From a virus (lineage: Duplodnaviria; Heunggongvirae; Uroviricota; Caudoviricetes): a DNA stretch of 64,000 nt. Where the stretch lies: the IMG/VR virus record IMGVR_UViG_2740892441_000001; one strand, 5' to 3'. Shown in pieces: positions 1 to 62,108 of this stretch. Positions within the stretch are counted from its first letter, which is position 1. Every line of letters starts with the position of its first letter. The position numbers were made by a program, and so were the translations under genes. The notes under the pieces were generated by a model. That model did no database searches, was not told the origin of the DNA, and was given only the letters and a program-made list of their open reading frames with translations.

Positions 1-319
1 GAACCTGAATAGCCAACTGGTTGTTGGTGTCGGCCATAGTGGTCGCCAGGAATTTATCAACGTCTACGTCACCAGCCAGAATACGCAGTTTCGCAACGCA
101 TTCTTCGAAGGTTGCTGCACCTTCAGGGATGGTGTCGTTAACGTCGATGAAGGTAGCTTCACTCAGCGTTTTTTCACGGTTGTACAGATATGCCTTTGAA
201 TTAATTTTCATAAAAGGCAGGATGGCAAACAGGTCATCGCGATCGATGATGGTTTCAATCACGCCCTGTTCAAGTTCGTTGTTAGACAGCTTTTCAGCTT
301 CTTCACGCAGTAATGGCAT
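1..319 (-). CDS. Major capsid protein, N-terminal fragment (gene runs off the window start)
   Basis: Minus-strand ATG at 317-319 preceded by AAGGGA RBS; translation MPLLREEAEKLSNNELEQGVIETIIDRDDLFAILPF...; sits directly downstream of scaffold-like gene in terminase-portal-scaffold-capsid order. Plus-strand ORF 21-341 judged antisense artefact. Confidence 0.45.
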   Translation of the reverse strand, partial: MPLLREEAEKLSNNELEQGVIETIIDRDDLFAILPFMKINSKAYLYNREKTLSEATFIDVNDTIPEGAATFEECVAKLRILAGDVDVDKFLATTMADTNNQLAIQV

Positions 320-344
320 CTATCAATTCCCTTTGATTTAGATG

Positions 345-1232: not shown

Positions 1233-1253
1233 AAAAATTCCCTTTGTTACTTA

Positions 1254-1622
1254 TCACTCGTTCTCTTGAGTAGATGAGTCCCCATTCCCTCGGGGTTGAT
1301 CTTGCCCGCTTTCTTGGGCTGCGTCTTGATCATAAGTAAGTACTGACTTATTTTCAAGGGTATTTAGATCATTTTTTGGCGGAAAATTCAAGAGATCTTT
1401 ATCAAATTCCTTCTTCATCGCCTCAGTGATGTTCGGGAAAATCTTCTCAATCAGCATTTCCATCTGGTGACGACGTACAGAGTCCGGTGCCTGAAGTAAC
1501 GACAGTTTCTCGGCAACAGAAAATTCATCAGTAAGGCCACGAATATCGAAACTTTCTGGATACGCAATTAAAGAGTGGTCTTCGTCCAGATCTACCCCCA
1601 TCCATTTCGCAACCAGTAGCAT
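1254..1622 (-). CDS. Hypothetical acidic head-module protein
   Basis: 122 aa ORF; start overlaps end of upstream portal-like ORF; no recognisable motif. Confidence 0.35.
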   Translation of the reverse strand: MLLVAKWMGVDLDEDHSLIAYPESFDIRGLTDEFSVAEKLSLLQAPDSVRRHQMEMLIEKIFPNITEAMKKEFDKDLLNFPPKNDLNTLENKSVLTYDQDAAQESGQDQPRGNGDSSTQENE

Positions 1623-2827: not shown

Positions 2828-2853
2828 TTGAATAACCTTAGATAATTACTTAC

Positions 2854-4110
2854 CTATCGAGAACCACCAAGAATAACACGGTTTTTGACTGGATACCTAC
2901 GATGTACTGGATAGCCCAATGCGTCTGCACTATGCTCAATGCCACCTGTCTTATCCATATCTCGTGTTCCAGGCTTGTAGATGACCTTTTCCAGTGAATC
3001 AATCAAATGCTTGCACTTCGGATCGATATACAGCCGGATATCTCCAGATGCGGTCATCAGCATTCGGTTAACAGCATTAACACGATCCGCAATTGGCGGG
3101 TGCTTTTTCGAATAATCGACACGTAAGAATCCCTTCTCTTTGAATATGTCTACGTCAGACTCCCCGCGAGCATGTTGGCGATAAGCACCTGCCGGATCTG
3201 GAAATACCGTTATCTGTGATTTCCAGCGCCAGAAGCGCCTCTCAAGCTCATCACAAACCTCTGCCGTGTTAGAGGAAAAGAGCACCAATTCATCAATTGC
3301 CCATAGCTCACCATTTGGCTGAGGTTGCAAAATTACGGAAGACATCGGGTCAATGTTGAAGTCCTGTCCTACCCATATAGGCAACCGAGGGTTGAACTGA
3401 AGCGGTTTAACATGCACGTTTCGATCGAACGGGTAGTAAACGCGCCCGGACATATTTTCAAAGCTGGCCAGGTACTCCTGAGCGAACGATTTAGGGTCCA
3501 TATCGTTCTTAGCAGCTTCAATTTCCGCCGTAGGCACAAACGGCGAATCAGCAGTTACAAACTGCCAGCTCTTCCACTGTCCCTTTCTTTGCAGCTCTAC
3601 GTTCTGGCCTATAGTCCACAGTTTGTGAAATTCCGAGAAGCCTTTTGGCGTACCAATGATCAGTGCACCGCCGCGTGTCGATGAAAGAGTAGGTCGTAAC
3701 ACCTTGTACCAGGTGTCAGCCTTCATATCCTGAAATTCATCAAGCACTACAAAATGCAACGCTACGCCGCGCAGAGTGTCAGGTTTATCAGCACCTTTGA
3801 GGGCGATCTCCGAACCGTTCTTCAACACGATTGTCATCGTGGTGTCGTTCTTTTTCCTAACCCACTTACGGGGCAGAACTTCCTGTAGATCGTCCCACAA
3901 AATCTGGCGAGCCATCTGGTAAGTAGGAGCGACATACCAGACCCTTTGCTTTTTTTCCTTTGCCGCCGCACGAATAATAGTGGAGATCGACAACCGGGAT
4001 TTTCCCCAGCGTCGACCAGCACAAACAACTTTAAATCGATGCGGAGACTGGAAGACTTTCATCTGTCCAGAATGCAGTTGCACAAGACTGAGCGAGGACG
4101 GGATTGCCAT
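2854..4110 (-). CDS. terL: Terminase large subunit
   Basis: 418 aa; Walker A-like VVCAGRRWGKS, Walker B-like HFVVLDEFQD, C-terminal nuclease-like region with conserved acidic residues. Confidence 0.9.
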   Translation of the reverse strand: MAIPSSLSLVQLHSGQMKVFQSPHRFKVVCAGRRWGKSRLSISTIIRAAAKEKKQRVWYVAPTYQMARQILWDDLQEVLPRKWVRKKNDTTMTIVLKNGSEIALKGADKPDTLRGVALHFVVLDEFQDMKADTWYKVLRPTLSSTRGGALIIGTPKGFSEFHKLWTIGQNVELQRKGQWKSWQFVTADSPFVPTAEIEAAKNDMDPKSFAQEYLASFENMSGRVYYPFDRNVHVKPLQFNPRLPIWVGQDFNIDPMSSVILQPQPNGELWAIDELVLFSSNTAEVCDELERRFWRWKSQITVFPDPAGAYRQHARGESDVDIFKEKGFLRVDYSKKHPPIADRVNAVNRMLMTASGDIRLYIDPKCKHLIDSLEKVIYKPGTRDMDKTGGIEHSADALGYPVHRRYPVKNRVILGGSR

Positions 4111-4742
4111 TATTCGTCCTCCCCTTCACTTCCATCATCTGTCGCATCAAATTCGCTTAGAGCTTCTTCTTCCAACGTCTCAAGCAATTCGTCATCGATG
4201 ATTTCAGGCTCGTCGTCTTCCTGACGTAATTTCGCCACCTGGGAAGGCGTAAGCTCACCAAATACCAGGTTCGGAATTTCTTCCTCGTCATTTTCCGCAT
4301 GATCCATGCCCAATGCTTTGGACGAAACTTCAAAGCATTTTGCAAGGGTATTACTGGCTCTCTGTAAGCTCTTGAGAGAACCCTCAATCGCCCCTAAAGG
4401 CTTACCCTCACGTTTGGCCGTAGTGACTTCGACCATCACCATCTGCCCCAACGCATACGCCCAGCCGTCATAACGTGTACGACGTTCTTCTATCTTTTCC
4501 GCACGGGCTTTAGCGCGAAGCTCTGCGTCAGATTTAAGAGACTCACGAACCATCTTCCCAACAGAGTCCGCGCCTTTCTCTAATCCTCGCTTTTTGAAAT
4601 GTCTGGAGAGTGTTTCACGACGAATGCCGTACTCTTCCTCCAGCTTTGAGAGTGTATATTCGCCTGACGTCCATTTGGCTTCAGCTTCGGCCCACTCCGC
4701 TGGTGTCAGGCGAGTTTTTACCTCGTCTTTTTCGACAGTCAT
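4110..4742 (-). CDS. Putative terminase small subunit / DNA-binding packaging protein
   Basis: 210 aa immediately upstream of and overlapping terL start; N-terminal HTH-like segment, acidic C-terminus; GAGGGA RBS. Confidence 0.5.
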   Translation of the reverse strand: MTVEKDEVKTRLTPAEWAEAEAKWTSGEYTLSKLEEEYGIRRETLSRHFKKRGLEKGADSVGKMVRESLKSDAELRAKARAEKIEERRTRYDGWAYALGQMVMVEVTTAKREGKPLGAIEGSLKSLQRASNTLAKCFEVSSKALGMDHAENDEEEIPNLVFGELTPSQVAKLRQEDDEPEIIDDELLETLEEEALSEFDATDDGSEGEDE

Positions 4743-4838: not shown

Positions 4839-4936
4839 GTCTGGGCATGTCTTACTAAGCCTGCTTCCGTATATATTTAATAAGTTACTTATTATTTATA
4901 TATACGGAAGCAGGTCTTTAAATAACGTCCCAGACC
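4839..4936. repeat. Long near-perfect palindrome (CCTGCTTCCGTATATAT ... ATATATACGGAAGCAGG) with outer GGTCTGGG/CCCAGACC arms
   Basis: Read directly; lies between stop of 4939-5205 gene and the terS promoter region; a second copy of the same arm sequence is at ~35979-36037. Confidence 0.7.
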
Positions 4937-20271: not shown

Positions 20272-22305
20272 TTACTTAACCTGGTGGCCAGGTTTAGCAC
20301 CAGCATCCGGGCTTAACAGGAAGATGTCTTTCCCGCCGGGGCCAGCAGCCATCACCATGCCTTCGGAGATACCGAAACGCATTTTACGCGGAGCCAGGTT
20401 AGCCACCATAATGGTGTGACGGCCAATCAGTGCCTGTGGGTCTGGATAAGCGGAACGGATGCCTGAGAAGACATTGCGTTTTTCACCGCCGAGATCCAGC
20501 GTCAGGCGCAGCAGTTTGTCAGAACCTTCAACAAAGTCTGCGTTTTCGATCAGCGCCACGCGCAGGTCAACTTTGGCAAAGTCGTCAAAGGTGATGGTTT
20601 CCTGAATCGGGTCGTCTGCCAGCGGGCCAGTAACTGGCGCGGCAGTAGCTTTCACTTCTTCTTTAGACGCTTCCACCAATGCTTCCACCTGTTTCATGTC
20701 GATACGGTTATACAGTGCTTTGAACGGATTCACTTTATGGCCCAGCAGCGGTTGCTGGATACCATCCCAGGTCAGTTCTGTATTCAGGAATGCTTCTGCA
20801 CGTTCAGTCAGTTTCGGCAGTACCGGCTTCAGGTACGTCATCAGCACGCGGAACAGGTTAATGCCCATAGAGCAAATCGCCTGCAGATCGGCATCGCGTC
20901 CTTCCTGCTTCGCCACCACCCACGGAGCCTGTTCATCGACATAGCGGTTAGCCAGGTCAGCCAATGCCATGATTTCACGGATAGCTTTACCAAATTCGCG
21001 GCTTTCCCATGCTTCGCCAATCACTTCAGCGGCATCAGTAAAGGTTTTGTACAGTTGCGAGTCAGCCAGTTCGCTTGCCAGCACGCCGTCAAAACGCTTG
21101 TTGATAAAGCCTGCATTACGGGAGGCCAGGTTAACCACTTTGTTCACGATATCGGCATTCACGCGCTGAACGAAATCCTCCAGGTTGAGATCGATATCAT
21201 CAATGCGCGAAGAGAGTTTCGCAGTGTAGTAGTAACGCAGGCTGTCGGCGTCAAAATGATTCATCCAGGTGCTGGCTTTAATAAAGGTGCCGCGAGACTT
21301 GGACATCTTCGCGCCGTTCACCGTCACATAGCCGTGAACAAACAGGTTGGTCGGCTTGCGGAAGTTGCTGCCTTCCAGCATGGCAGGCCAGAACAGGCTG
21401 TGGAAGTAAACGATATCTTTACCGATGAAGTGGTACAGCTCGGCGGTGGAGTCTTTCTTCCAGTATTCATCGAAGCTGGTAGTGTCGCCGCGCTTGTCGC
21501 ACAGATTCTTGAAGGAACCCATGTAGCCAATCGGTGCGTCCAGCCAGACGTAGAAATATTTACCCGGCGCGTTCGGAATTTCAAAACCGAAGTAAGGTGC
21601 GTCGCGGGAGATATCCCACTGTTGCAGACCAGATTCAAACCACTCCTGCATTTTGTTTGCCACCTGCTCCTGCAACGCACCGCTGCGGGTCCATGCCTGC
21701 AACATTTCGCTGAAAGAGGGCAGATCAAAGAAGAAGTGTTCAGAATCACGCATTACCGGCGTAGCGCCAGAAACTACCGATTTCGGCTCAATCAGTTCAG
21801 TCGGGCTGTAGGTCGCGCCGCAAACTTCACAGTTATCGCCGTATTGATCTGGCGCTTTACATTTCGGACAGGTGCCTTTCACAAAACGATCCGGCAGGAA
21901 CATGCCTTTTTCCGGGTCGTACAACTGAGAGATAGTGCGGTTTTTAATAAAACCGTTCTCTTTCAGGCGAGTATAGATAAGCTCAGACAGCTGGCGGTTC
22001 TCTTCGCTGTGCGTCGAGTGATAGTTGTCATAGCTGATGTTAAAGCCTGCGAAATCAGTCTGGTGTTCCTGGCTCATTTCGCCAATCATCTGTTCCGGTG
22101 TGATACCAAGCTGCTGTGCTTTCAGCATGATCGGCGTACCGTGGGCATCGTCGGCGCAGATGAAGTTGACCTCGTGGCCGCGCATTCGCTGGTAACGGAC
22201 CCAGACATCAGCCTGGATGTGCTCCAGCATATGGCCGAGGTGGATTGAGCCGTTAGCGTACGGCAGCGCGCACGTCACCAGAATTTTCTTCGCGACTTGG
22301 GTCAT
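20272..22305 (-). CDS. metG: Methionine--tRNA ligase (methionyl-tRNA synthetase), enterobacterial type
   Basis: 677 aa from [26 protein letters not shown]... with HIGH (HLGH) and KMSKS motifs; recalled as near-identical to E. coli MetG; start reassigned to 22305. Confidence 0.97.
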
Positions 22306-22462
22306 AGTAGGCATTACTTCTTTGTAGTGAAAAGGGGCTTGATAGTAACAAAATGGCCTTATGTCTGCCATGTGATAACAGCATTTCTCATAAATGATTA
22401 AATGTCGTAGCTGGAGTACACTACAAGGCGACAATTGCGCAAATTAAAATAAAGGAGACGGG

Positions 22463-23563
22463 ATGAGCGAGTCCAAATCGCCGGATGCCCTGAGAGCAAT
22501 GGTAGCCGGTACGCTGGCTAATTTTCAGCACCCAACCCTGAAGCACAACCTGACTACGCTTAAAGCGTTACACCATGTTGCGTTGATGGATGACACACTG
22601 CATGTCGAACTAATCATGCCTTTCGTGTGGAATAAGCCTTTTGAAGACCTGAAAGAGCAATGTAGTGGTGATCTGCTCCGTATCACTGGCGCAAAGGCTA
22701 TCGACTGGAAGCTGTCGTACAACATTGCCACGCTTAAGCGCGTCAAAAACCAACCAGGCATTAATGGCGTTAAGAACATCATCGCCGTCAGCTCAGGCAA
22801 GGGCGGTGTAGGCAAATCGTCCACAGCAGTAAACTTGGCACTGGCGTTGGCTGCTGAAGGTGCGAAAGTTGGTATTTTGGATGCCGATATCTACGGTCCA
22901 TCAATTCCAACCATGCTGGGTGCGGAAAACCAACGTCCAACCTCACCGGACGGTACTCACATGGCACCTATCATGTCTCATGGCCTGGCAACCAACTCTA
23001 TTGGTTATCTGGTCACCGACGACAATGCAATGGTGTGGCGTGGACCGATGGCCAGCAAGGCGTTAATGCAGATGTTGCAGGAAACTCTATGGCCTGATCT
23101 GGACTATCTCGTTCTCGATATGCCGCCGGGCACTGGTGATATTCAATTGACGCTGGCGCAGAACATTCCTGTAACTGGTGCTGTTGTGGTAACTACGCCG
23201 CAAGATATCGCGCTGATCGATGCGAAGAAAGGCATTGTGATGTTCGAAAAAGTCGAAGTGCCGGTACTGGGTATCGTCGAAAACATGAGTGTGCATATTT
23301 GCAGTAACTGCGGTCATCACGAGCCAATTTTTGGCACCGGTGGCGCACAGAAGCTGGCCGAGAAATACAACACGCAGTTGTTAGGCCAAATGCCACTTCA
23401 TATCTCTCTTCGTGAAGATCTGGATAACGGAACACCAACCGTTATTAGTCGTCCAGATAGCGAATTTACGGCTATTTATCGTGACCTCGCAGATCGCGTT
23501 GCTGCCCAAATGTATTGGCAAGGTGAAGTAATACCTGGCGAAATCGCATTCCGCGCAGTGTGA
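22463..23563 (+). CDS. apbC: Iron-sulfur cluster carrier protein ApbC/Mrp (P-loop ATPase)
   Basis: 366 aa; deviant Walker A SGKGGVGKSS and CxxC motif (CSNCGH); divergent from metG with enterobacterial-type intergenic region. Confidence 0.95.
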   Translation: MSESKSPDALRAMVAGTLANFQHPTLKHNLTTLKALHHVALMDDTLHVELIMPFVWNKPFEDLKEQCSGDLLRITGAKAIDWKLSYNIATLKRVKNQPGINGVKNIIAVSSGKGGVGKSSTAVNLALALAAEGAKVGILDADIYGPSIPTMLGAENQRPTSPDGTHMAPIMSHGLATNSIGYLVTDDNAMVWRGPMASKALMQMLQETLWPDLDYLVLDMPPGTGDIQLTLAQNIPVTGAVVVTTPQDIALIDAKKGIVMFEKVEVPVLGIVENMSVHICSNCGHHEPIFGTGGAQKLAEKYNTQLLGQMPLHISLREDLDNGTPTVISRPDSEFTAIYRDLADRVAAQMYWQGEVIPGEIAFRAV

Positions 23564-32191: not shown

Positions 32192-32245
32192 TTTTCATCC
32201 TTGTTTTTATCAACATAATATGGCCGATCATGCGGCCATATCAGA

Positions 32246-35119: not shown

Positions 35120-35640
35120 CGTGTAATAATTATTAAAATAAACAAATTACTTCCCAGTACAGGTTTTTATAAACCTGAACTGAACGAACGAAGTGAGTGA
35201 AGTTCACCTCGAACGAAGTGAGAGGTTGTCTTTTCAGGTAATACTCTCCCAGGGAGGTGAGTATAAAATTCCTCACCAACCTGGTCGTTTCATAACCTGA
35301 AAAGCTATGGTCTAAGTCTACTGCCAGCTTAGACTTGGGAAGTTATGGATGACAGCACCCCAGAACCGAGATCTTCCCACACTTTATGAAGGGGAGTACT
35401 GGATTCAACCTCTCGAAACACCCCAGACTCGACAATCATAAAGTGACCCTTGTCTCCGCTCACTTTGGTTCCCCCTTCCCCGACACCTAAACGGCACCGG
35501 TTCTACGCTGGTAGTGAGCTTTTTTAAACCTGACGCCAGTGACGCTTACCCCCACCCATCAGGTCGAGTCTCCAGTCTACGACTGGAAACTATCAGATCT
35601 TAGCACTTACAATTCATCTTATGAATAGTTTGTACTTATC
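35120..35640. other. ~520 bp ORF-free region with multiple hairpins and a 12 bp direct repeat (GAACGAAGTGAG x2)
   Basis: No ORF of 60 aa or more on either strand; hairpins CAGGTTTttataAAACCTG, GGTGAG..CTCACC, GTCTAAG..CTTAGAC; AGTGAGC + TTTTTT at ~35511-35526. Confidence 0.5.
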
Positions 35641-37645: not shown

Positions 37646-37803
37646 GTAAGTCTCCTTCTGTTTGGTTACATTTGCGTTTCGATGGCTACATTTTGACTAA
37701 ACCTATCAGGCGGAAAAGTATTAAATACAGGCAGGAAATGATTGAAAGGCGACTGTTCTTTAAAAGAAAGCCTACTTTAAACTTTTTAAAGTAGGCTTTT
37801 GTT

Positions 37804-38352
37804 TTACACAATTTCAGAGGGTAATTTAAAAAATCCGTACTTATTACGTGCCTTAAAGAAGCATTGCATCATTAAGTTTGTGTCATATAAGGCACTATGT
37901 GCTTTGGCATGATCGTATATAAAGCCAAGAGAGAAGGCCAACTCTTCAAGGCGGGGACGTTTACCGTCTTCTGTGGCCCACAGGGAAAATAGAGTGTCAA
38001 TCAATGGGATGTCTGGAAGCGAAAAACCGTAACTTTTCAGCTCATGCCTAATAAACGGAATATCGAACGCTTCGCCGTTGTGGGCTATCCAAATATCGGA
38101 AGAAGAGAGATACGAAGCGACAGATGAAGCGTGATCGGCTAGTAACGGCTCGGCGGCTAAATCTTCAAGACTGATGCCGTGTACCGCTTGCGCTTTCGGA
38201 TCGATACTGCGACGCGGGTTGAACCGCATTGCAAAACTATCAACCATTGTCTGTGTCTCAATTTCGTACTTCACCATTGCGATTTCAATGATTTTATGGC
38301 CTGAGAGGAAATCAAGACCTGTTGATTCGATGTCCACCCCTGTAGCAATCAC
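37804..38352 (-). CDS. DnaQ-like (DEDD) 3'-5' exonuclease
   Basis: Exo I VDIESTGL, Exo II IAHNGEAFDIPF, Exo III HSALYDT motifs. Confidence 0.8.
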   Translation of the reverse strand: MIATGVDIESTGLDFLSGHKIIEIAMVKYEIETQTMVDSFAMRFNPRRSIDPKAQAVHGISLEDLAAEPLLADHASSVASYLSSSDIWIAHNGEAFDIPFIRHELKSYGFSLPDIPLIDTLFSLWATEDGKRPRLEELAFSLGFIYDHAKAHSALYDTNLMMQCFFKARNKYGFFKLPSEIV

Positions 38353-39143
38353 TTTTTATCTCCTTTTACTGGTCGTTTGGACGGTGTGAAGATGGCAGCT
38401 TCAACATCCCACCCCCTCAAAATTCGCTGCGAGATAATGGTCGCAGTCAAGCCAACCTCTCTAGCCCATTCGGTAATTCGCTGAGTTCTGCCGCGACACT
38501 CGATCAGACGCTTACTATCTCGGTTGGCATACGTGTCGACGCTGGCGTTAAGCGCGCGATCTAATGGCCACCCTTTCTTGATTCGATAGTGAAGAGTTGA
38601 TGTCTGAATCCCGGCTCTTTTAGCCCATTGTGAGAGAGTCAGCTTTTCCCCCTTATGCTCCAAAATTAAGTTTGAACGCGTGTTATTGGCCTGTTCTTCA
38701 AAAGTCGCCCATCTGCAATTTTCAGGTTCGTAGTCACCATTCACATCTTTGCGATCAAGAGACATCCCCTCTGGTCGCTCTCCCATGTCAGCATAAAAGT
38801 TTTCAAATATTTGCCACCGCTCGCAGACTTTGATACCTCGGCCGCCATACCACTTATAGGCGTGATGGGTTGGTTTTTCACATCGTTCCCGCATACCCAG
38901 CCATATACGATAAATTGGCGTTTTACTCATACCATGAGGCTTTACGCTACGGCGATGTGCGTTGTAGACACAGCCACACGATATTGTCGCCCCGTGATTT
39001 AGCTTCCCGTAACTAACCAGGCAGGTGTTGCCGCAATCGCAGATGCAATCCCAAAGTCGCCCTTGTTTGTTTGAAATACCGGAATATTTAAGTGCAACCA
39101 ACTTTCCAAAACGTTTACCTGTTATGTCTACCGGTTGTCCCAT
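38349..39143 (-). CDS. HNH/AP2-type homing-endonuclease-like protein
   Basis: Cys cluster CICDCGN...CGC plus IYRIWLGMRERC...YGGRGIKVCERW...F.NFYADMG typical of phage free-standing HNH endonucleases. Confidence 0.65.
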   Translation of the reverse strand: MGQPVDITGKRFGKLVALKYSGISNKQGRLWDCICDCGNTCLVSYGKLNHGATISCGCVYNAHRRSVKPHGMSKTPIYRIWLGMRERCEKPTHHAYKWYGGRGIKVCERWQIFENFYADMGERPEGMSLDRKDVNGDYEPENCRWATFEEQANNTRSNLILEHKGEKLTLSQWAKRAGIQTSTLHYRIKKGWPLDRALNASVDTYANRDSKRLIECRGRTQRITEWAREVGLTATIISQRILRGWDVEAAIFTPSKRPVKGDKK

Positions 39144-39152
39144 TACTACTCC

Positions 39153-39571
39153 TTACAACTTCTTAGCGCCCTTAAGTAGTGCGCTACGTACAAATTGAGC
39201 CGCTTTTTTCAAAGTTTCTTCACTGGTTTCACAGACAACCGGATCTTTCCACTTACCTGACGCCGTGTTGAGAATGTTGATTTGGTTGCTATCCAGACAA
39301 ACAGAGACGTAAAGCACCGTGCCACCAGCCAGCATCAAATGCATAGGAAACAGAGGCTTTTTACTGCCTTCACTGAACTGAGACATGGCGATGTTAATGC
39401 TTCACCTACTTGTGCGCCAACAAGCCCTTGCGCAATTTCGAATACGGTACGAATAGCCAGACGAGCCTCTCGATCGCTCATAAGCGACCGGGAATGTTCG
39501 TCCGCTACACGAATCAAAGCCTCTGTTGTTTTCCGATCCAGTTCATCTTCAAGTAACATTTCACTAAACAT
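39153..39571 (-). CDS. Hypothetical protein; two overlapping ORFs (39335-39571 and 39153-39386), possible frameshift
   Basis: ORFs overlap in different frames; no motif recognised. Confidence 0.3.
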
Positions 39572-39632: not shown

Positions 39633-40277
39633 CTAATGAACGGTCACTCGGCCACAGAACCGGTTTTCTATCTTTTCTACAGCGTTATCTAGCATTCTCA
39701 TCACTGATCTGGCTCTTGCTTCAACCGTGCGATATCGGTTGGAAACGACGAAGGTTTGCAGATCCCCCCTTTGCGGATGCAGGTGAATTTTTGTCAGTTC
39801 CCCGCACATCAACGCATCAATACGAGCGACATACAGACGGTCTAATGATGCTCGTTGTGATCGCAAGTAATCTCGCTCTGAGAGAGCGACTCCCGGGCGT
39901 AAGCCAGCAATGGCGTTAAAGTTTGAAATAGCAGTTTTGTGGCAAAACTTTTCGATATCGAGGGCTAACTCAATACATCGATCTTCATTGGTATGGCCGA
40001 CCAAATCCAACGTGTAGGCCATAACATCAGCAGGTGTGCGATCGATAACAAAGCCTTCAACACCACGCGTAAGTAGCTCTATATGCTTTGCTATTTCCAT
40101 TTGAATCTGAAGCCGCTCATATAGAGGCATAGACTCACCTACTCGAACACCGAGTCGGCTCATCAAACTTCCGACACCAGCATCCACGTAAGGGATTCCG
40201 TAATGTTTGTCGATATATTTTGCCAGGGTTGTTTTCCCACTGCCCTGAGCACCAGTGATCCCAATCCGGTAATCCAT
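39633..40277 (-). CDS. P-loop NTPase, probable (deoxy)nucleotide kinase
   Basis: Walker A GITGAQGSGKTT at N-terminus; small size and position within the nucleotide-metabolism cluster. Confidence 0.55.
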   Translation of the reverse strand: MDYRIGITGAQGSGKTTLAKYIDKHYGIPYVDAGVGSLMSRLGVRVGESMPLYERLQIQMEIAKHIELLTRGVEGFVIDRTPADVMAYTLDLVGHTNEDRCIELALDIEKFCHKTAISNFNAIAGLRPGVALSERDYLRSQRASLDRLYVARIDALMCGELTKIHLHPQRGDLQTFVVSNRYRTVEARARSVMRMLDNAVEKIENRFCGRVTVH

Positions 40278-40752
40278 TACGACCTTCTGTATACGATCTG
40301 CGAAAAGCCAGGCTCTTCCTCGCTGGCTCGTTGGGTATAAGCTGTTTCAACAGGCACAAAGCCTAAGTTACGCATCATGCTTGCCGGGAAGAATGCATCG
40401 GCGTTTGGTACATCAACGCCGATGTGGGAGAGCCAAATCTCTTCAACATGCGGCATGAATAGCGAGTAAATTTGTTCCCCGCCAATCACCCACACAGGCT
40501 CTGGTAATCGCAACACATCATCCACACCAGCAGGTAGAATCCATTTGGTACAAAGCCATGAGAGCGCGTCAAAACGAGGTTATGACGCTCTGGAAGAGGG
40601 CGTTTGAGACTTTCCATCGTTTTACGCCCCATAACGACAGTGGCGTTTTTGGTGAGTCTCTTAAATAGCTTCAGATCGGTAGAACAACGCCAGGGGAGTT
40701 CATTCGCTATGCCGATCTCATAGTTACGGCCAACAGCAGCGATCATCTTCAT
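40277..40752 (-). pseudogene. Dihydrofolate reductase, interrupted by a frameshift (or sequencing error)
   Basis: N-terminal [25 protein letters not shown]...[11 protein letters not shown] and C-terminal ORF ...[10 protein letters not shown]... are DHFR halves in different frames; junction ~40525-40565. Confidence 0.75.
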
Positions 40753-41162
40753 TTGCTCACCTCATAGATGACCGGTCGATGGTGAGAGTCGGCTAAAGCG
40801 GCACGGAGTCGAGGATCGTGCACCAGCGCAGCGATAAGCAGATCGCCTTTATGCTCCGCTAATGTGCGCTTAATATGCTTCTCATAACTGGTGCCATTCG
40901 GTACGAGATGAAGCCAGTCATAATCAACGCCAAAATCTTTCAGCCATCGTTTAGTTGGCGCTTCAAGAGTTTCAGAGCGGCTACTGATAAGCACCACTTC
41001 AGCCCCTGAGCGAGCAAAACCACGCAACATACGGCTGGTGGGGAAAATGAGTTCATCACCGGCAATGAGCTGGCCTGCATCCGCGTCAGATACTGATTTA
41101 CGATGGCTGGCATTTGCCAGCACACCTTCAATTTCGCATAAGACATACATACCTCTTGCCAT
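40749..41162 (-). CDS. Hypothetical protein (possible degenerate HAD-like nucleotidase)
   Basis: Start set at [17 protein letters not shown]; weak resemblance to HAD motif I. Confidence 0.35.
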
Positions 41163-41163
41163 A

Positions 41164-42267
41164 TCACACCGCCACTGGAACCTTGATCCACGGTAGAGGG
41201 TCATAGCCAAGAATTAAAACCTCGTCCCATTTGAAATCATCCAACTCTGACCATTCATGAGGGAAAATAACGACCGGATCTGAATGCTCTGGAGCCTGTC
41301 GTTTCATTAGCTCACACACACCTTCCATGTGGTTGTTGTACAAATGCACGTCAAAGCCAAAATGCACAAATGCACCGGCCATGTGACCCGTAATCTTCGC
41401 GAGAAAATGAGTGAGAATGCCATAGCCAGCAATATTGAATGGCATACCAACAAAAGTGTCTACGCTACGCTGTACGAGGCAGGAGTTGAGGATGCGTTTG
41501 GGGATTCCAAGTTCATCCAGTTCAGCTTCAGTAACACTGCCGTCCATCTCCAGATCGTATAGCATCTTGGTGTAGATAGACTCGTAACCGAGGCGACTGT
41601 GTTGAAGACCAATGTCAGTTGCCATCGTTAAACGGGTTTCAAAATCCAGCTCACGACTCCACAAAGAGAAGACAAAGTGGCAAGGTGGCAGTTTCATATC
41701 CTCAAGCTCGCCTACGTTCCATGCGTTAAGCATGATGCGACGATCGGTGGGGTTCGTGCGCAGTGTATCGACAATACGCTGTAGCTGATCGATTTCACGG
41801 GACAGCACTACGCGATCTTCACTGATACCCAGGTATCCCTCGACTTTGTACCCGCGTTCACGGAAAGTATCGATCTTGCTCAGATATTCACTATGGCTCA
41901 CGATGCGGGTATCTTCCCATCGACGCCACTGCTTACCGTAAACCGGCCCCAAATCGCCATTCTCATCGGCCCATGCATCCCAAATCTTAACGCCGTTATC
42001 CTTGAGAAATTGGATGTTGCCCGTGCCTTTCAGATACCACTCAAGTTCGACAAGTAGTGGCTTAAGATTTACCGCCTTTCCAGAAATAAGCGGCACAGTC
42101 CCACCAGTAAGCATGTAGTAAGAGGGAACATAGCAGGTGCTTAAAGTACCAGTGCCTGTGCGATCATCAGCCTGCACGCCGCTTTTAAGCACCGTCTCAA
42201 TAACTTTTGCATACGATGCGTTTGTTACCTGACCGTTCGTATGCTCTCGATTCAAAAGGAGTGACAC
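41164..42267 (-). CDS. thyA: Thymidylate synthase (ThyA family, with insertions)
   Basis: DRTGTGTLS, WDAWADENGDLGPVYGKQWRRW, NAWNVGELEDMKLPPCH (catalytic Cys), GMPFNIAGY, GYDPLPWIKVPVAV parallel E. coli ThyA; 367 aa versus ~264 aa. Confidence 0.88.
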   Translation of the reverse strand: MSLLLNREHTNGQVTNASYAKVIETVLKSGVQADDRTGTGTLSTCYVPSYYMLTGGTVPLISGKAVNLKPLLVELEWYLKGTGNIQFLKDNGVKIWDAWADENGDLGPVYGKQWRRWEDTRIVSHSEYLSKIDTFRERGYKVEGYLGISEDRVVLSREIDQLQRIVDTLRTNPTDRRIMLNAWNVGELEDMKLPPCHFVFSLWSRELDFETRLTMATDIGLQHSRLGYESIYTKMLYDLEMDGSVTEAELDELGIPKRILNSCLVQRSVDTFVGMPFNIAGYGILTHFLAKITGHMAGAFVHFGFDVHLYNNHMEGVCELMKRQAPEHSDPVVIFPHEWSELDDFKWDEVLILGYDPLPWIKVPVAV

Positions 42268-44627: not shown

Positions 44628-46942
44628 TCAGATTTTGCAGGCTCCGTCGCACTCATCTTCTGGCTCGACGGCTACAGCTTGCGTAAGTGGATTCTGCGCT
44701 TCGTCGTCATCACGCTTTCCTGCACCATCTCTGGTGTTGTGGTAGTAAAGCGTTTTAACTCCCATCTTGTAGGCGAGAAGCAAATCTGACAGTAGCGTCA
44801 TCATTGGGACTTTATCGCCTTCAAAGCGAGAAGGGTCATAGTTGGTATTGGCTGAAATAGCCTGGTCAAAGAACTTCTGGATGATCGCCACCTTTGTCAG
44901 ATAGCCGCGGTTGTCCGGCATATCCCACAGGTATTCATACTGTTCCTTCAGTTTTTCAAACTCAGGCACGACCATCTTGACGATGCCGTCCTTAGAAGAT
45001 TTCACTGACACCGGGCCACGAGGCGGTTCGATGCCGTTGGTGGAATTAGTGATCTGGCTGGAAGTCTCGCATGGCATTTGTGCCGTCAGTGTGGAGTTGC
45101 GAAGGCCGTATTTTGCAATACGTTCACGCAGTTCTTCCCACGGCATCTTTAACTCAAAGTTGGTTTCGCCGCTTTCGTCTAATGAAGAACGGTAATGGTC
45201 GATCGGCAACTGACCAATTGCGTATTTGGTCTGCTCAAACCAGTCACACTCACCTTTTGCTTCAGCAAGTCGGCAGCTGGCGTCAAGAAGGTAATACTGG
45301 ATAGCTTCGAACGTTTCATGCACCAGTTTATTGCCAGCGGTATCAGAATAACGAACGCCATTCTTTGCCAGGTAATAAGCAAAGTTGGTTACACCAATTC
45401 CCAGGCTACGACGAGCTTTGGCAGGCACTTCGGCTGCCTCCATCGGATAGTCTTGATAATCCAGTAACGAATCCAGTGCAGCAACGGCATAGAACGCCAC
45501 CTCTTTAAGAGACTCCAGTGAACGGATGGCTCCGAGGTTAAAAGCGGATAAAGTGCATAGCGCGATCTCACCGTTCGGGTCGTCGGTAAATGCCAGTGGA
45601 CGGGTGGGTAGAGTGATCTCCATGCACAGGTTTGACTGGCGAACAGGTGCAAGAGCAGGAATGAAAGCGCCATGCTCGTTAATATGATCGACGTTCGCAA
45701 TATAAATTCGGCCCGTGGACGCTCGTTCCTGCATCAGAGATGAGAACAGCTCAATGGCAGGTACTGACTTCTTGCGAATTGAATCATCGGCTTCGTATTT
45801 ATGGTACAGCTTTTCAAACAGATCCTGGTCTGTGAAGAAGGCTTCGTACATATCAGGCACATCATGCGGCTGAACAGAGTGATGTTCTCGCTTCTGACGA
45901 GTCGACGGTACATTAGACGGTTACTCATGACGCCGTAATCAAGATGGCGAACGCGGTTTTCATCAATACCACGGTTATTTTTCACCACCAGCAGACTTTC
46001 AACCTCAAGATGCCAAATCGGGTAAAACGCTGTTGCTGCGCCACCACGAACACCACCTTGCGAACAAGATTTAACAGCCGTCTGGAAATGCTTCAGGAAT
46101 GGAATAACTCCGGTATGGGTGGCTTCACCATTGCGGATCTCACTGCCCAGCGCACGGATACGGCCAAAACCAATACCAATTCCAGCACGACGTGAAACGT
46201 AGTCGATAATTGCGGCTGAAGCTGCACTAATCCCTTTCAGACTATCGCCAGACTCAATCAGCACACAACTGGAGAACTGACGGGTTGGAGTACGGACGCC
46301 GGCCATGATTGGTGTGGGCAGAGACAGCTTGAACGTACTTGTAACGTCATAGAAACCTTTGACCATCTCCATACGTGTTTTGCCCGCGCAGTCGTCTTCC
46401 CAATTCTGGAACAGACACATGCCCACCAGCATATAGATATGTTGCGGGCCTTCGTGAATCTCACCAGTAACACGGTTTTGAACGAGGTATTTGCTTTGCA
46501 ACTGCACCGTAGCTGCATAGCCAAAAAGATCGTCACGTTTCGGCTTAATGTAATTGCCGAGTTCTTCGATCTCTTCAAATGAATAATGTGTCAGCAAATC
46601 CTTGTCATAAACGCCCTTGTTAACGTTCTTGACAATGTGTTGGTAGAAGTTCGGATAGTCGTAACGACCGAAGGCATCTTTGCGGATTTTAAAAATGTTC
46701 AGGCGGGCAGCCACCTGCGAGTAATTTGGTGCATCTGGTGAGATCAAATCAGCGGCAGATTTAACCAAAGCCTCATGCAACTGGCTGGTGGTAATCCCAT
46801 CAAAAATGCTGGTCGCAGCTCCCATTGCTACAGCGGATGCGCTTACACCACGAATGCCTTCTACGCCATACATTACGACGCGGTTGTATTTTTCTTCGGA
46901 TAACGGCTCTGTTTGGCCGTTACGTTTTACGATGCTTATCAT
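44628..46942 (-). pseudogene. nrdA: Ribonucleotide reductase class Ia alpha subunit, split by a frameshift near 45860-45900
   Basis: N-terminal ORF 45734-46942 and C-terminal ORF 44628-45860 (ending ...ECDGACKI) together are about the length of E. coli NrdA but in different frames. Confidence 0.88.
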
Positions 46943-47594: not shown

Positions 47595-48337
47595 TTACCA
47601 TGTTCCCCATAGAGGGTTTTCCAATAATCTCGCCTCCAACGAATTGGCTACTATTGCCGTTTGCAACGTTGGTTGGGGATAGTTTGCAAAGTCTGAATAC
47701 TCATTTTCCTGCGTGACACGTTTATCTACGGCATGTTTAACGCCACTTGCTATGAAATGACGCATGATACCCAACAGCCTCCGACTGTCTGCACTATCGT
47801 TTGCTAAAACATGAGGGAGCTGAAGTTCGATTTCTACCATTTCTCCATACTTACCAACAAACTGTAGTTTGTCCGCACTGTACTTTTTATCCCTCCTTTG
47901 GATAAGGAAACCAGTAAAAGCATCACCTGGCGATGCCAAACTATCCACCCGCTTATTGGCAAGTCGAATAAGGTTCGTGAAAGCCATACAGTGATGCGCC
48001 CCCATTCCCCCAAAGAATCCTTCGCTATTAATGTTAAGATCTTCAGTTTCATGGGATGCAATAAACCCAGGCCCGACGTTGGGAGATATCCCCCCTCAAC
48101 AAAAGGATTAATCAGGATCGGCGCAATACATCCAGGTGGTAGTGATTTCAAACTTTGCATCAATGGTGTCTCGGATATTAGACCAAGCAACGCGGCGAAT
48201 TGTACTCCGTCAATATTGTTGCTGCCCCACAGAATACGTGGAGCCGCACCATTGGAAGTATGCCCATTGATCAGTTTTATCGACTGCATCACTGCAAATA
48301 CCTGCAAAAACTGCGAGCGGCTTAATTTAAACGACAT
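47595..48337 (-). CDS. Hypothetical protein, apparently split into two overlapping frames (47834-48337 and 47595-48005)
   Basis: Two ORFs overlap by ~170 nt in different frames between recombination genes. Confidence 0.35.
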
Positions 48338-52816: not shown

Positions 52817-53479
52817 TTAAACCCTGAGATTACGTTTAAAACGTCTCAGTGGCTTTTTACGCGCTGCGTTTATGCTTATGACGCCAGCTTTTGGACGTGG
52901 GTCAACAAGGTTAAGCTCTTCTTCGCTGTGGTATTCGAGGTCGAACTCACGTTTTACATGTCTGATGTAGATTGCGGTGAGCAGGCTATCTTTGGTCAGA
53001 AAGTGTCCGTAGGATTTGCGGATCACTTCTTCTACCTTCTCGATTTTCTCACCACCCATACAGAGATGATTAAACCGGCTGTGTTTCCGCAACATTTCGT
53101 CTACTGGGCCTGAGTAAACCTTGTCTACTTTCCCAAAACGGATGATTTTCCCTGTGTCTGCGGATACGAGGCAAATCAGCTTGTCTGGTGATAAACGATC
53201 TCGCCACGTCACACCTGAACGGAGTGTGTTGAAGTAGGGCGCATCCAATCCGATGATCGGTTTACGAAATGCGAGCAATGGAACGTACCTGATACAACTA
53301 TTCAAATGAAAGTTCACACCAGCCTTATCAAGTTTAATTCTGGTTTCGTAGATCGGGCACTTCGCCGCTATACCGCAGATATCACAAAGTAACTTCTGCT
53401 TATTCAGGTTGGAATTTGATTCGATAGTGTAGGAGCCGTCCTCAAGACGACGAACCCAGCGCGTGCGTTTTAGATCCAT
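52817..53479 (-). CDS. Hypothetical protein
   Basis: 220 aa ORF with Cys pair CDICG; no family recognised. Confidence 0.5.
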   Translation of the reverse strand: MDLKRTRWVRRLEDGSYTIESNSNLNKQKLLCDICGIAAKCPIYETRIKLDKAGVNFHLNSCIRYVPLLAFRKPIIGLDAPYFNTLRSGVTWRDRLSPDKLICLVSADTGKIIRFGKVDKVYSGPVDEMLRKHSRFNHLCMGGEKIEKVEEVIRKSYGHFLTKDSLLTAIYIRHVKREFDLEYHSEEELNLVDPRPKAGVISINAARKKPLRRFKRNLRV

Positions 53480-58505: not shown

Positions 58506-60845
58506 TTAATCTTCTAGTTCTTCTGTTGGTGATGTCTTCTCTCGTCGGTCATCTATCGCCTGTAACGCAGCAATGATTTCAGCCAGTGGCTTCTCCCGAT
58601 ACATCTCGACGATCTGCGATTTGGTGTATTTCTTGTCACCAATTTCAACTCTCCCGCTGGCGTTCTTTGGCAGGTATCCTTCTTCCAGCATGTACTCGAC
58701 GAGCGATTCGATAACGTCGAGGCCACGAGTAGGATCGAAGTAGAATTTCCAGGTGCATTTGCCATACGGTGGTGCAACTTTGTTTTTGATGCACTCTGCG
58801 CCTACGTCCTGACCGATCTTCTCTTTCCCATCCTTCATCACCGATGCACCGAGACGGATGCGCACAGAAGCGTAAAACTTCGGTGAATCGCCGCCTGGAG
58901 ACGTAGTAGGGTCGCCAAACATTACACCGATTTTTGTGCGAACCTGATTCAAGAAGATGATGCAGGCGTTGTATTTGCGTGCCCACAAAGCCAGAGTAGG
59001 GAAGTTCGCACTCGTCGCACGCGCCAGTGCCGTATTGTCGTTCATGTTTAGCTGATCTTTGTCTTTGGCTGTGCCTTCAGCCATCTTTTCGAACTTCTCG
59101 GCTTTGGAGTTCGGAACCATAGACGCAAGAGAGTCAGCCACGATACAGATAGGTGCTGATTCGGGGATAAGCTCTTCATCACGAACCAATTTAAGTATTG
59201 TGCCGATCAACTCTACAGAGTCTTCGAAGGTATCTGGCTGCTTGTATACCCACTGACCGTCATCCTCATCTGCATTCAAACCATTGGCTACAGCCAGGCC
59301 AACGTCAAAACTGTTTTCATGATCGAGGAATACCGCCAGACCATCTTGTTTTTGAGCGGAGATCATCGCTGCTGTTGCAAGGAATGTGTTGTGGCTGATA
59401 ATCCCGTTAGACCAGAAAGAGTGTGTTTCCGGCATCGCTACGTCGAACGTTGGTGCTTCACCTTCCTCAATAGCCACGACTTCGTCGTAGAACAAGTTAG
59501 AGCCAATTACCGCTGCCAGTTGTGCAAACAGATGCTCGTTAAAACGATTCTTTCTGCCAATGAAGGAGACATAGATTTCTCGCAGTTTGTCTATTCCGAC
59601 ACGATCGCCGCGGCCAATAACGTGGTCTACCAGAGCGTAGTCTTCACGGGTGGTCTTGGTGAGCGACTCGTAGAGTGATTTCACTAAGCCGCTGATGTGC
59701 GGAACATAGCCTGAGTAAGTGCGGTCAAAACCAATGTCCCGTTTGGTTGCCACTGATAAACGTGCCGGAGATTCGAAACCAATCGTTGACAGAAAAAGGT
59801 CGTAATTAGAGCCACTGAATGACAGCCGGTAATATGTATTTTCATAACCCGCGACGTGTTTTTCAGAGATAGTTGACGTAATCCCCAGATTCAGGAGCAT
59901 GAGGCGAATTTGCTGTAGCAGCAGCCCACTCGCGCTCACAACCTCAATGCAGCGACCATCATTGACGTGGCATTCCAGCTCAAAGTAGCCGCGAAGGAAT
60001 GCAATTTGAGCCTCGCTATTGGCGCGACGCACACTCAACGGAACCTGCTTGCCAGCAGCTTTCTCATACTCCAGACCATATTCTTTAAAAAGCAGCGAAC
60101 GCACCTCTTTGCTAAACAGCACATGGTCTTCCGAGCCGTTATGTTTTCTCGTAACTGGCATCTTGTCTGATACCAGCGAAATGAGGCGGTAGTACTCATC
60201 CTTGATGAAAGGATCTGTGTTAGAAAAATTCACTGAATTTTCAGAGGCCACGTATCCGTCAGCAATTAAATAGCCCATCAGTTTTGCGATATTGGCATCC
60301 AGGTGCTGATCGCCGAATTGATGTGTGCCAACCATTGAAGGAATCGTGTCGCCTACACTGATTTTTTCAGCATGTCGCCAGACGACATTACCTAAGTCGT
60401 CAACCACACGGATTGGGTGACGGAACGTAGCCTCGATATAACCGCCTGATGCCAGCTTAATACGCTTGAATTTGCGACGGTTGTTCCATGTCAGGTGTGA
60501 GGTCTTCTCTATCACGCCATTTTCATTGATGAGTCCAACGTTATGCTCTACATCGCGAGTAGTGCATGTCGCTTTGTACCCTTCAATCTCAAACAACTCT
60601 TTCACTGTTACCATTCCACGCTCCGTCAGCAGCATGGTGTCTGCGGTAACACATTTCCCCGCACTTGGAGGACCGAATACTTCGACGATACGACCACATG
60701 GGAAACCGCCATCGTAACGACCGGAAATCGCTTTGTTTAACGGAGGAAAGCCTGTGTCAATCCAATGAGTTACTTTCTGAATTTCGTCGTTGCTACCGAT
60801 TTTCTTTTTCAGAGCAAGTGCCAGTGCGGATTTTCCTTTTGCCAT
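58506..60845 (-). CDS. RecA/UvsX-like recombinase containing an intein in the Walker A P-loop
   Basis: 779 aa; extein reads FGPPSAGK | C...(422 aa)...SHN | TFLATAAM; removing residues 65-486 leaves ~357 aa, RecA-sized. Confidence 0.88.
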   Translation of the reverse strand: MAKGKSALALALKKKIGSNDEIQKVTHWIDTGFPPLNKAISGRYDGGFPCGRIVEVFGPPSAGKCVTADTMLLTERGMVTVKELFEIEGYKATCTTRDVEHNVGLINENGVIEKTSHLTWNNRRKFKRIKLASGGYIEATFRHPIRVVDDLGNVVWRHAEKISVGDTIPSMVGTHQFGDQHLDANIAKLMGYLIADGYVASENSVNFSNTDPFIKDEYYRLISLVSDKMPVTRKHNGSEDHVLFSKEVRSLLFKEYGLEYEKAAGKQVPLSVRRANSEAQIAFLRGYFELECHVNDGRCIEVVSASGLLLQQIRLMLLNLGITSTISEKHVAGYENTYYRLSFSGSNYDLFLSTIGFESPARLSVATKRDIGFDRTYSGYVPHISGLVKSLYESLTKTTREDYALVDHVIGRGDRVGIDKLREIYVSFIGRKNRFNEHLFAQLAAVIGSNLFYDEVVAIEEGEAPTFDVAMPETHSFWSNGIISHNTFLATAAMISAQKQDGLAVFLDHENSFDVGLAVANGLNADEDDGQWVYKQPDTFEDSVELIGTILKLVRDEELIPESAPICIVADSLASMVPNSKAEKFEKMAEGTAKDKDQLNMNDNTALARATSANFPTLALWARKYNACIIFLNQVRTKIGVMFGDPTTSPGGDSPKFYASVRIRLGASVMKDGKEKIGQDVGAECIKNKVAPPYGKCTWKFYFDPTRGLDVIESLVEYMLEEGYLPKNASGRVEIGDKKYTKSQIVEMYREKPLAEIIAALQAIDDRREKTSPTEELED
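59388..60653 (-). mobile_element. Intein (422 aa) with LAGLIDADG homing-endonuclease domain inside the recombinase gene
   Basis: N-terminal Cys after GPPSAGK, C-terminal His-Asn followed by Thr; LAGLIDADG-type motifs LMGYLIADGYV and IAFLRGYFELE. Confidence 0.8.
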
Positions 60846-60847
60846 GA

Positions 60848-61120
60848 TCAGGCTCCTTTTGTTTCGTTGATTCGTTTTAAAGCGGCGGATTCGTCGAATA
60901 CAATCGCATCGTGGTTAAGGAGTCTGGATACACGAGCGAGGATTTTTACGACCTGCTCGCTGACTAATCCAAACTCGCGATCTGTCGCTTTCATTCCGGC
61001 AGCGCCTAGAATTGACGGCAGTGCGATGACAGCGTACTCACCGTGATAAAAGACAATCTCTTTTGCCAGTTGGGCAGGGGTGGTTGTAGCGCCATTAATA
61101 ATCGATTTAAGCATTAGCAA
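60848..61120 (-). CDS. Hypothetical small protein
   Basis: 90 aa ORF between flap endonuclease and recombinase. Confidence 0.4.
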   Translation of the reverse strand: MLMLKSIINGATTTPAQLAKEIVFYHGEYAVIALPSILGAAGMKATDREFGLVSEQVVKILARVSRLLNHDAIVFDESAALKRINETKGA

Positions 61121-62108
61121 TACCTTTCGAATGGAAGAACAAACACTTCAAGGTCTTCAAGGAACGAACGGAAATTCAGCTCGTAGCACAGTTGCTCGAA
61201 TGCTTTCACGTCACGATTGCCTTTGATTGTTTCGATTTCGGTAGGCGGAAACTTCGTCTCAATCAGGTTCATTAGCGTGATGTTTCTCTTGAACGCTTCG
61301 AGCATTCGACAGCCTGTTTTCTCGTTGAAGGCATTCTTCGCTAGTTTGTTGAAGGCGGTCTTATGGCGTCCTTTGTCAACCACGATTGAGCCGTCGTTGA
61401 TGCCGCGTACCATCGTTGCGACACTTCCCCATTCATGCAGCAGCTCTTTCGCACCGCCAGCACCAATGCCACCAACACCGCTAATGTTGTCCGATTTATC
61501 GCCTTGTAATGCTTTTGCTTCCAAAAATGCGCGAGGAGTAGCGAATCCTGTCAGCTCCGCAAATTGCTCAAAATTAACCTGCTTGTTTTTGGCGTCTTCG
61601 CGCAGGCTTACCCAGCTTACGTTTTCGCGAACTAACTGAAGCCAGTCGCTATCGCCTGTTAACAGATAGATGTGTTCAACGGTTGGCTGCGCTGCCATGC
61701 GGGATACCAGCAGCCCGGCCAGATCATCCGCTTCTGCATCTTTTGCAATGAGTTGGGTAACTCCAAGCGCGGTCATCATTTTGAGGATGTATGGCTTCTG
61801 GATAGCAAAGCCTTCCTTCATCTTTTTCATATCAGGATCGTCGTCGCGATTTGCTTTGTAGTCCGGGTAAAAGTCGCGACGCTTGTCACTAAATCCATCC
61901 CAAAGAATCATAGGTCGGGCATGGAGGATGGAGGCATAACGACGGACGTTCTTAACAAAGCCGAAAGCAGCCTGTACTTCCATTTCGCCGTTGTGCAATT
62001 TGTCAGATTGTTGGTGGTAATAACCCAGCTATTGCCATCTACGAAGAGATAATTCACCGGTACATTCCTTCCAAAAAGTAAGGCGTCCGTAGACGCCTTA
62101 CTGGTCAC
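61114..62108 (-). pseudogene. 5'-3' exonuclease / flap endonuclease (FEN), N-terminus in a different frame (frameshift near 61990-62000)
   Basis: ORF 61908-62108 encodes ...YLFVDGNSWVI (FEN N-terminal motif); ORF 61114-61998 carries KDAEADDLAG and GDKSDNISGVGGIG (helix-hairpin-helix). Confidence 0.75.
62072..62098 (-). terminator. Rho-independent terminator (AGGCGTCTACGGACGCCT + TACTTTTT)
   Basis: Hairpin plus T-run after SSB gene. Confidence 0.7.

Follow-up and report, generated by a model that had tools for sequence, protein, structure and literature searches.

The dihydrofolate reductase (DHFR) gene dfrA51 was named in 2025, from SSU5 (PMC12217456). The cloned SSU5 gene gave trimethoprim MICs of 256-512 mg/L, compared with 2-4 mg/L for the empty vector, and dfrA51 was described as a backbone gene of phage-plasmids that has no flanking mobile element (PMC12217456). 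It encodes a trimethoprim-insensitive DHFR and belongs to the thyA / HAD-like / dfr / AAA cluster that SSU5-like phage-plasmids of Enterobacteriaceae carry. Intact homologues, which bear the RefSeq name 'trimethoprim-resistant dihydrofolate reductase DfrA51', are found in complete E. coli genomes, on about 200 of their plasmids. The enzyme has its fold family (PF00186) in common with E. coli FolA and phage T4 Frd, to which it is only distantly related in sequence.

We analysed a stretch of 64,000 nucleotides, referred to here as the window, which belongs to an SSU5-like IncFIB phage-plasmid and shares 98-99% identity with many E. coli plasmids that are about 110 kb in size. Its DHFR locus is the dfrA51 gene, already described, and the copy written in the window is disrupted by a frameshift. 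We conclude with considerable confidence that this frameshift is a base-calling artefact of the Ion Torrent PGM in an ordinary dfrA51 gene and that it is most likely absent from the DNA of the organism.

The dfrA51 locus and its reading frames

The dfr gene lies on the minus strand at 40277-40752, with its ATG at 40752-40750 and its TAA at 40279-40277, exactly the ends at which an earlier note on this DNA had placed a DHFR gene. It is part of a co-oriented minus-strand cluster of nrdA, nrdB, a MazG-like gene, thyA, a 137-aa HAD-like gene, dfr and an AAA_28 ATPase gene. The order nrdB, MazG-like gene, thyA, 137-aa gene, dfr and AAA ATPase gene is the same in SSU5, Cyrano, PhiR41_1 and pW170_1, and the context of dfr in the window is an SSU5-like phage-plasmid backbone with no flanking mobile element. 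The genes around dfr are intact: thymidylate synthase (41164-42267, minus strand, 367 aa), a 137-aa protein that resembles HAD hydrolases or the phosphatase domain of polynucleotide kinase (40749-41162, minus strand) and, downstream of dfr, the 214-aa AAA_28 ATPase (39633-40277, minus strand), whose nucleotide sequence is 100% identical to that of pW170_1. The dfr gene overlaps both neighbours, as its ATG shares bases with the stop codon of the upstream gene (ATGA) and its stop codon with the start codon of the AAA_28 gene that follows (TAATG).

As the earlier note had recognised, the two halves of the DHFR are written in different frames. The N-terminal ORF (40486-40752, minus strand) encodes 88 aa, which comprise 73 native and 15 out-of-frame residues and are followed by TGA. 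The C-terminal ORF (40277-40525, minus strand), listed from a GTG at 40525, encodes 82 aa that represent the native residues 77-158, including the VIGG motif. Alignment of the region to the annotated phages Escherichia phage Cyrano, PhiR41_1 and Salmonella phage SSU5 revealed one base as the sole length difference within the gene, which measures 476 nt in the window and 477 nt in every relative. At 40533-40534 the plus strand reads GG, where the relatives have GGG; on the minus strand, codon 74 (Pro, CCT) lacks one C, and the window reads TAC-CT-GCT instead of TAC-CCT-GCT. The frame break is thus due to the loss of one base from the CCC of codon Pro74, and it falls within the junction of about 40525-40565 that had been proposed before. 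The earlier estimate that about 25 residues of the core are missing between the halves is wrong: the fragments correspond to positions 1-73 and 77-158 of the DfrA51 profile, the native residues 74-76 (P-A-G) are also encoded, just 5' of the GTG in the C-terminal frame, and the gene is short by one nucleotide only. The apparent gap may, at a guess, have arisen because this short phage-plasmid enzyme was compared with FolA or T4 Frd, which are longer.

Addition of one C gives a protein of 158 aa that is 100% identical to the E. coli variant WP_000781810.1, without a single difference, and no nucleotide substitution distinguishes the dfr gene of the window from that of pW170_1. A continuous ORF after error correction, which the earlier note had named as the observation that would speak against a split gene, is therefore obtained by restoring a single base. 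In comparison to the type protein, DfrA51 of SSU5 (AFL47010.1), 144 of 159 aligned positions match (about 91%, with the stop counted along with the 158 residues). On the NCBIfam model NF047324.1 (DfrA51), the repaired product reaches 338.2 bits over profile positions 1-158, above the cut-off of 322, and the fragments as written reach 153.5 bits (N-terminal) and 162.8 bits (C-terminal), both below this cut-off. On the Pfam model DHFR_1 (PF00186; gathering threshold 25), the repaired protein scores 119.3 bits (profile positions 3-157 of 159, E = 1.6e-34), the N-terminal fragment 85.8 bits and the C-terminal fragment 32.8 bits. The type 3 DHFR model gives 87.8 bits for the repaired protein, which is below its cut-off of 168. 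All four of the residues that were reported to matter for resistance, A6, I13, D26 and S48 (PMC12217456), are located in the N-terminal fragment. The written gene differs from DfrA51 by the one C lost in codon 74, and the native frame ends with residue 73.

A real deletion would end translation after the 73 native and 15 foreign residues, the VIGG motif and the C-terminal half would not be reached, and the DHFR enzyme would be inactive. Translation of the ATPase gene that follows, which is coupled through the overlap, would presumably also be disrupted by the early stop. One might imagine that the split is a functional arrangement, in which programmed -1 ribosomal frameshifting joins the two frames or a two-piece DHFR is assembled from the fragments, and a -1 slip after TAC would in fact read CCT and give the native protein exactly. 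We regard such an arrangement as extremely improbable. All homologues have one continuous ORF of 477 nt, and the frameshift is not conserved; the TTC-TAC-CTG at this site is not a slippery heptamer of the form X-XXY-YYZ; no Shine-Dalgarno-like sequence was seen on inspection ahead of the GTG of the C-terminal ORF; and neither fragment reaches the DfrA51 cut-off. To our knowledge, a productive association of DHFR fragments requires their fusion to dimerising partners.

Further single-base deletions in the window

We found six further conserved genes that carry a private 1-bp deletion in a run of 2-4 bases, so that, together with dfr, seven such genes are present in the window. All of them are encoded on the minus strand. 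The portal gene (1254-2827) has its deletion at about 1638 (CCC to CC on the plus strand, GGGCT to GGCT on the minus strand), and a 139-aa gene with no assigned function (39153-39571) has lost one base at 39398-39399 (GGCT to GCT). In nrdA (44628-46942), the deletion at 45868-45869 (GGGCT to GGCT) breaks the product of 771 aa into pieces of 402 and 368 aa. A 247-aa gene with no assigned function (47595-48337) carries a deletion at 48080-48084, for which the alignment is ambiguous between GGGG to GGG and AA to A. In a gene whose product has 214 aa in relatives and 220 aa here (52817-53479), the deletion lies near the 3' end (52850-52853, GGGCT to GGCT), and in the gene for a 5'-3' exonuclease or flap endonuclease (FEN; 61114-62057) it is found 31 nt into the gene (62027-62028, GGCT to GCT). 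The disruptions of nrdA and FEN, which had been pointed out before, are real features of the written sequence and consist of 1-bp deletions in G/C runs. Since the portal gene and three genes without assigned function are affected as well, the defects are not specific to nucleotide metabolism.

Six of the seven private coding deletions are located in G/C runs of 2-3 bases, and the seventh (48083) is ambiguous. Between 39148 and 62500, a comparison with four related plasmids revealed six private indels in the window, each of them a 1-bp deletion in coding sequence; in the same interval, the four related plasmids have no private coding frameshifts, and their private 1-bp indels are intergenic only. 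In the remainder of the window, which was compared with two references, we found the portal deletion at 1638 and a few intergenic events. The frameshifts that are left after the assembly and its partial correction amount to about one per 6-9 kb. Relative to pW170_1, frame-disrupting indels occur in nine genes, namely the seven described above and those with differences at about 33769 and about 35091, for which pW170_1 was the only reference and which we read as natural or annotation differences.

These lesions could reflect a genuine pseudogenisation, with real 1-bp deletions in dfrA51, nrdA, FEN, portal and other genes of a decaying prophage-plasmid that is kept as a plasmid and whose host folA and nrdAB would cover the lost functions. 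The affected functions are not needed for plasmid maintenance in a host with folA and nrdAB, and this dispensability speaks in favour of decay. RCE03, the E. coli strain from which the sequence comes, was reported to be susceptible to all antibiotics tested (PMC5517970), which is compatible with an inactive dfrA51 but uninformative, because resistance through dfrA51 has been demonstrated with cloned genes only. Despite these points, we consider a genuine decay of the plasmid unlikely. Compared with pW170_1, none of 66 conserved genes contains a nonsense codon, and pooled dN/dS is 0.097 for the nine genes with frame-disrupting indels and 0.113 for the other 57. Neither larger disabling changes nor relaxed constraint were found among the 66 conserved genes, where dN/dS is normal, and the repaired DHFR has no amino-acid changes. 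The absence of nonsense codons, the normal dN/dS and the involvement of the portal and other genes also argue against a decay of the nucleotide-metabolism module, one of two explanations offered in the earlier note.

The sequence context of the lesions points in the same direction. We counted ten deletions for this analysis, seven of them in the window, two private to the assembly of run SRR1596056 and one in CBWH010000055.1. In seven of these ten, the lost base is a G of a GG or GGG run with CT directly after it, compared with a background of 10.2% among the G-runs of 2-4 bases in the window (binomial P ~1e-5, for a motif that was picked post hoc). Long runs (A7-A9, C6-C7) are not represented among the private coding-sequence deletions of the window. 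Replication slippage, by comparison, is expected to concentrate in long runs. A single, mechanical type of lesion that is biased in its context, affects short G/C runs and spares the long ones is difficult to reconcile with pseudogenisation.

Two other candidate causes were considered and rejected. Slippage in a mismatch-repair-deficient host was dismissed, as no private coding deletion lies in a long run, and Dcm (CCWGG) methylation was dismissed as an error context, as only the site at 62028 appears to sit in CCAGG.

Distribution of the deletion allele

The deletion allele of dfr was found in none of the 203 matching records from complete E. coli genomes, all of which align at 98.6% with one gap and none of which aligns at 100%. 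In the six phage records and in all of the 60 plasmid records listed, the matching stretch has 850-852 bases and is one base longer than the query (849-851 bases). In 20 further assemblies, which were located via the neighbouring proteins, a DHFR of 158 aa is encoded in every case. The ten of these that cover nrdA and the 247-aa gene all encode a 771-aa NrdA and an intact 247-aa protein, and in the first ten of the 20, which were aligned to the window, neither the base at 40533 nor that at 39399 is lost. Scans for the exact pattern in IMG/VR, GTDB species genomes and JGI metagenomes revealed no related contig with the deletion allele, and a 27-mer across the deletion had no matches in GTDB species genomes and JGI metagenomes. 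A lone IMG/VR match to a 21-mer of the deletion allele was dismissed as chance, since the matching sequence has otherwise no similarity to the window. The fact that the deletion is present in no other assembly among more than 200 speaks against a genuine loss of the gene.

The exact 88-aa product is on record only in the Logan assemblies of two SRA runs, SRR1596056 and SRR1599274. The first of these represents the plasmid of the window, with no substitutions in 17,982 aligned bases and three homopolymer-length differences. The deletion at 39399 occurs in the window only and is not seen in the SRR1596056 assembly; a GGCT to GCT deletion at 48851, which splits a 638-aa ATPase, occurs only in the Logan contig of SRR1596056; and position 39764 has G5 in this contig and G6 in the window. 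The two assemblies of the RCE03 plasmid, the MIRA assembly of the submitters and the Logan assembly of SRR1596056, agree on the dfr deletion. Its presence in two assemblies of one plasmid counts against an artefact and in favour of pseudogenisation, whereas the disagreement of the same two assemblies at other homopolymer sites counts against pseudogenisation.

SRR1599274 contains a different plasmid variant, which is about 98% identical to the window and has no HNH gene. In spite of this divergence of about 2%, it carries the same dfr, nrdA and 247-aa-gene deletions as the window. In the 600 bp to each side of the dfr site, the window agrees completely with pW170_1, which is intact, and the SRR1599274 plasmid differs by two substitutions from phage Cyrano, which is likewise intact. 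Around the nrdA site, no pair is more divergent than the two carriers of the deletion, which differ by 23 substitutions in 1.2 kb. Inheritance of the dfr lesion within a clade is not supported, as its carriers are two unrelated haplotypes whose nearest relatives are intact. This comparison of the flanking regions shows an independent recurrence of the dfr, nrdA and 247-aa-gene deletions on different backgrounds. Identical lesions on a second, divergent haplotype with an intact nearest relative stand against decay of the plasmid, and because identical losses are seen at three sites, on unrelated backgrounds and in only these read sets, a systematic technical error is the best explanation.

Two observations on the extent of this recurrence were counted against an artefact. 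Over the 11.6 kb that the three assemblies have in common, three of the six sites carry the deletion in each of them. Furthermore, CBWH010000055.1, which comes from another project (GCA_000529975.1), has the portal deletion in common with the window, next to a GGCT deletion of its own in the terminase gene.

Recurrence of this kind could also be produced by a real mutational hot spot, at which one G is lost from GG(G)CT in a sequence-specific manner, at the same sites and in independent lineages. The predominance of G-runs followed by CT among the deletions (seven of ten), the three sites in common on two haplotypes and the occurrence of the portal site in a third assembly would all fit such a process. 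However, the recurrences are confined to SRR1596056, SRR1599274, CBWH010000055.1 and the window, with none in the 203 complete-genome records and none in the 20 other assemblies, and the window contains 514 G-runs of 2-4 bases followed by CT on both strands, only a handful of which are affected. We know of no biological mechanism for a repeated loss of G at GG(G)CT sites. Motif-associated recurrence is, on the other hand, described for PGM errors (PMC3623719). A hot spot therefore seems very unlikely to us, and it is just as doubtful that an undescribed -1 mutational process inactivates dfrA51, nrdA, FEN and portal together in SSU5-like phage-plasmids.

Source of the sequence and consequences of the frameshift

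The window corresponds to positions 32001-96000 of JUDX01000018.1 (GCA_001630835.1, 108,886 bp), so that record coordinates exceed those of the window by 32,000. Over 20,663 bp (42817-63479 of the window), both sequences are 100.000% identical, and JUDX01000018.1 also contains the 220-aa product that the frameshifted gene at 52817-53479 encodes. The dfr site is located 2.3 kb outside the compared stretch, and the identity with JUDX01000018.1 at 40533 is extrapolated from 42817-63479. JUDX00000000 is the genome of E. coli RCE03, which was obtained from a patient with Crohn's disease (PMC5517970). The strain was sequenced on the Ion Torrent PGM with a 318 chip and the 200-bp kit v2, and the reads were assembled with MIRA 4.0 (PMC5517970). 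Its authors stated that homopolymer errors cause artificial frameshifts, some of which are residual, and the HomoHomo correction lowers the number of artificial indels by a factor of only about 2.5 (PMC5517970). In the same study, plLF82-like plasmids were found in isolates of several patients (PMC5517970), which may explain why a second variant appears in a run with a nearby accession number. Based on sequence identity and their nearby accession numbers, SRR1596056 and SRR1599274 appear to be PGM runs of the same project.

The source platform is known for errors of exactly this type, which is a further point against pseudogenisation. Bragg et al. 2013 described 'high-frequency indels' of the PGM, which occur about once per 1-2 kb of reference (PMC3623719). 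The strand-asymmetric indels of this class lie to 82% in runs of 2-3 bases and are mostly C/G deletions; the sites of high-frequency indels are common to different runs more often than expected by chance, with motif-associated recurrence, and these indels produce frameshifts in assemblies (PMC3623719). The dfr lesion resembles them, as it is the loss of a single C/G base from a run of 2-3 bases, recurs between runs and gives a frameshift in the assembly. A difference lies in the extent of recurrence, since the majority of high-frequency indels were specific to one run in the study of Bragg et al. (PMC3623719), whereas three of six sites are found in all three assemblies here.

We therefore favour a sequencing artefact as the origin of the dfr frameshift. 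Five lines of evidence lead to this reading: the repair by one base is exact, the window is identical to a contig derived from PGM reads over the 20.7 kb that were compared, the allele is absent from all of the examined assemblies of other platforms, the same deletions recur on a second haplotype, and other signs of decay are lacking. The plasmid of the organism would accordingly carry an intact dfrA51 that encodes a DHFR of 158 aa. The PGM would under-call the CCC of codon 74 in most reads, so that the reads would be systematically wrong at this site, as we infer. This error would then outlast both the MIRA assembly and the partial homopolymer correction by the authors, and remain in the RCE03 draft (JUDX01000018.1), where at least six more genes of the window would carry the same artefact. 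Systematic sequencing errors, the other explanation offered in the earlier note, thereby gain support from the single type of lesion, from the recurrence on a second haplotype and from the PGM origin of the assembly.

These results have consequences for the use of this and similar records. JUDX01000018.1 carries roughly one artificial frameshift per 6-9 kb, and the whole JUDV-JUDY / JWJZ-JWKB / LAW-LAX set of PGM assemblies probably carries frameshifts at a like density. The apparent pseudogenes, split genes and 'decaying modules' of the window, such as nrdA, FEN and portal, should be discounted in the same way. Screens for resistance genes would wrongly call the dfrA51 of RCE03 truncated. The frameshift is most likely not a biological feature of this phage-plasmid, but a sequencing artefact in a known gene.

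Single-base deletions in related assemblies

Single-base deletions in homopolymer runs were also found in other assemblies. The Logan assembly of SRR1596056 represents the same plasmid as the window and showed no substitutions against it over 18 kb, but it has two homopolymer deletions of its own: its gene for a 638-aa ATPase has a GGCT to GCT deletion at window position 48851, and its AAA_28 gene has G5 in place of G6 at 39764, neither of which is present in the window. These deletions show that the length of homopolymers is not stable within these read sets. A third plasmid variant from another project (CBWH010000055.1, GCA_000529975.1), which corresponds to window positions 1-4367 with 98.9% identity, shares the 1-bp deletion in the portal gene at 1638 and carries a GGCT to GCT deletion of its own in the terminase gene, at the equivalent of window position 3720.

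In seven of the ten deletion events the lost base was a G from a GG or GGG run followed by CT, against a background of 10.2%, a motif that we picked after the data had been seen. These events lie at 1638, 39399, 45869, 52850 and 62028 in the window, at 48851 in the SRR1596056 assembly and at 3720 in CBWH010000055.1. The bias may reflect a motif preference of the PGM sequencing error.

Private length differences of 1 bp also occur between genes, at 4845, 32203-32208, 35124, 35268-35272 and 37783-37785, and include one G insertion and one shortening of T6 to T5, among others. Two of them fall in a hairpin loop at about 37770-37800. These intergenic differences may be either errors or natural variation.

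Intact host-like and intein-bearing genes

The phage-plasmid carries host-like copies of metG, encoding methionyl-tRNA synthetase, and apbC (20272-23563), both of them intact. Nearly all differences of the two genes from the related plasmid pW170_1 are synonymous, with 60 synonymous and 3 non-synonymous changes in metG. Separately, the source genome is labelled 'E. coli' (PMC5517970), a name that may mask a different or cryptic Escherichia lineage.

A RecA-like gene of 779 aa (58506-60845, minus strand; Pfam Intein_splicing, LAGLIDADG_3 and RecA_N) harbours an intein that includes a homing endonuclease domain of the LAGLIDADG type, and is intact in the window.

An HNH endonuclease insert beside a diverged exonuclease gene

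A free-standing HNH endonuclease gene of 264 aa (38349-39143, minus strand; PHROG 374, E = 2e-79) is flanked by a 139-aa gene and by the adjoining 3'-5' exonuclease gene (37804-38350). ESBL242 and many other assemblies carry the insert; pW170_1, pE16EC0562-7 and Cyrano lack it. The exonuclease gene of the window is only about 75% identical to its copy in plasmids without the insert. This combination of an HNH insert and a diverged neighbouring exonuclease gene would be compatible with co-conversion driven by a homing endonuclease.
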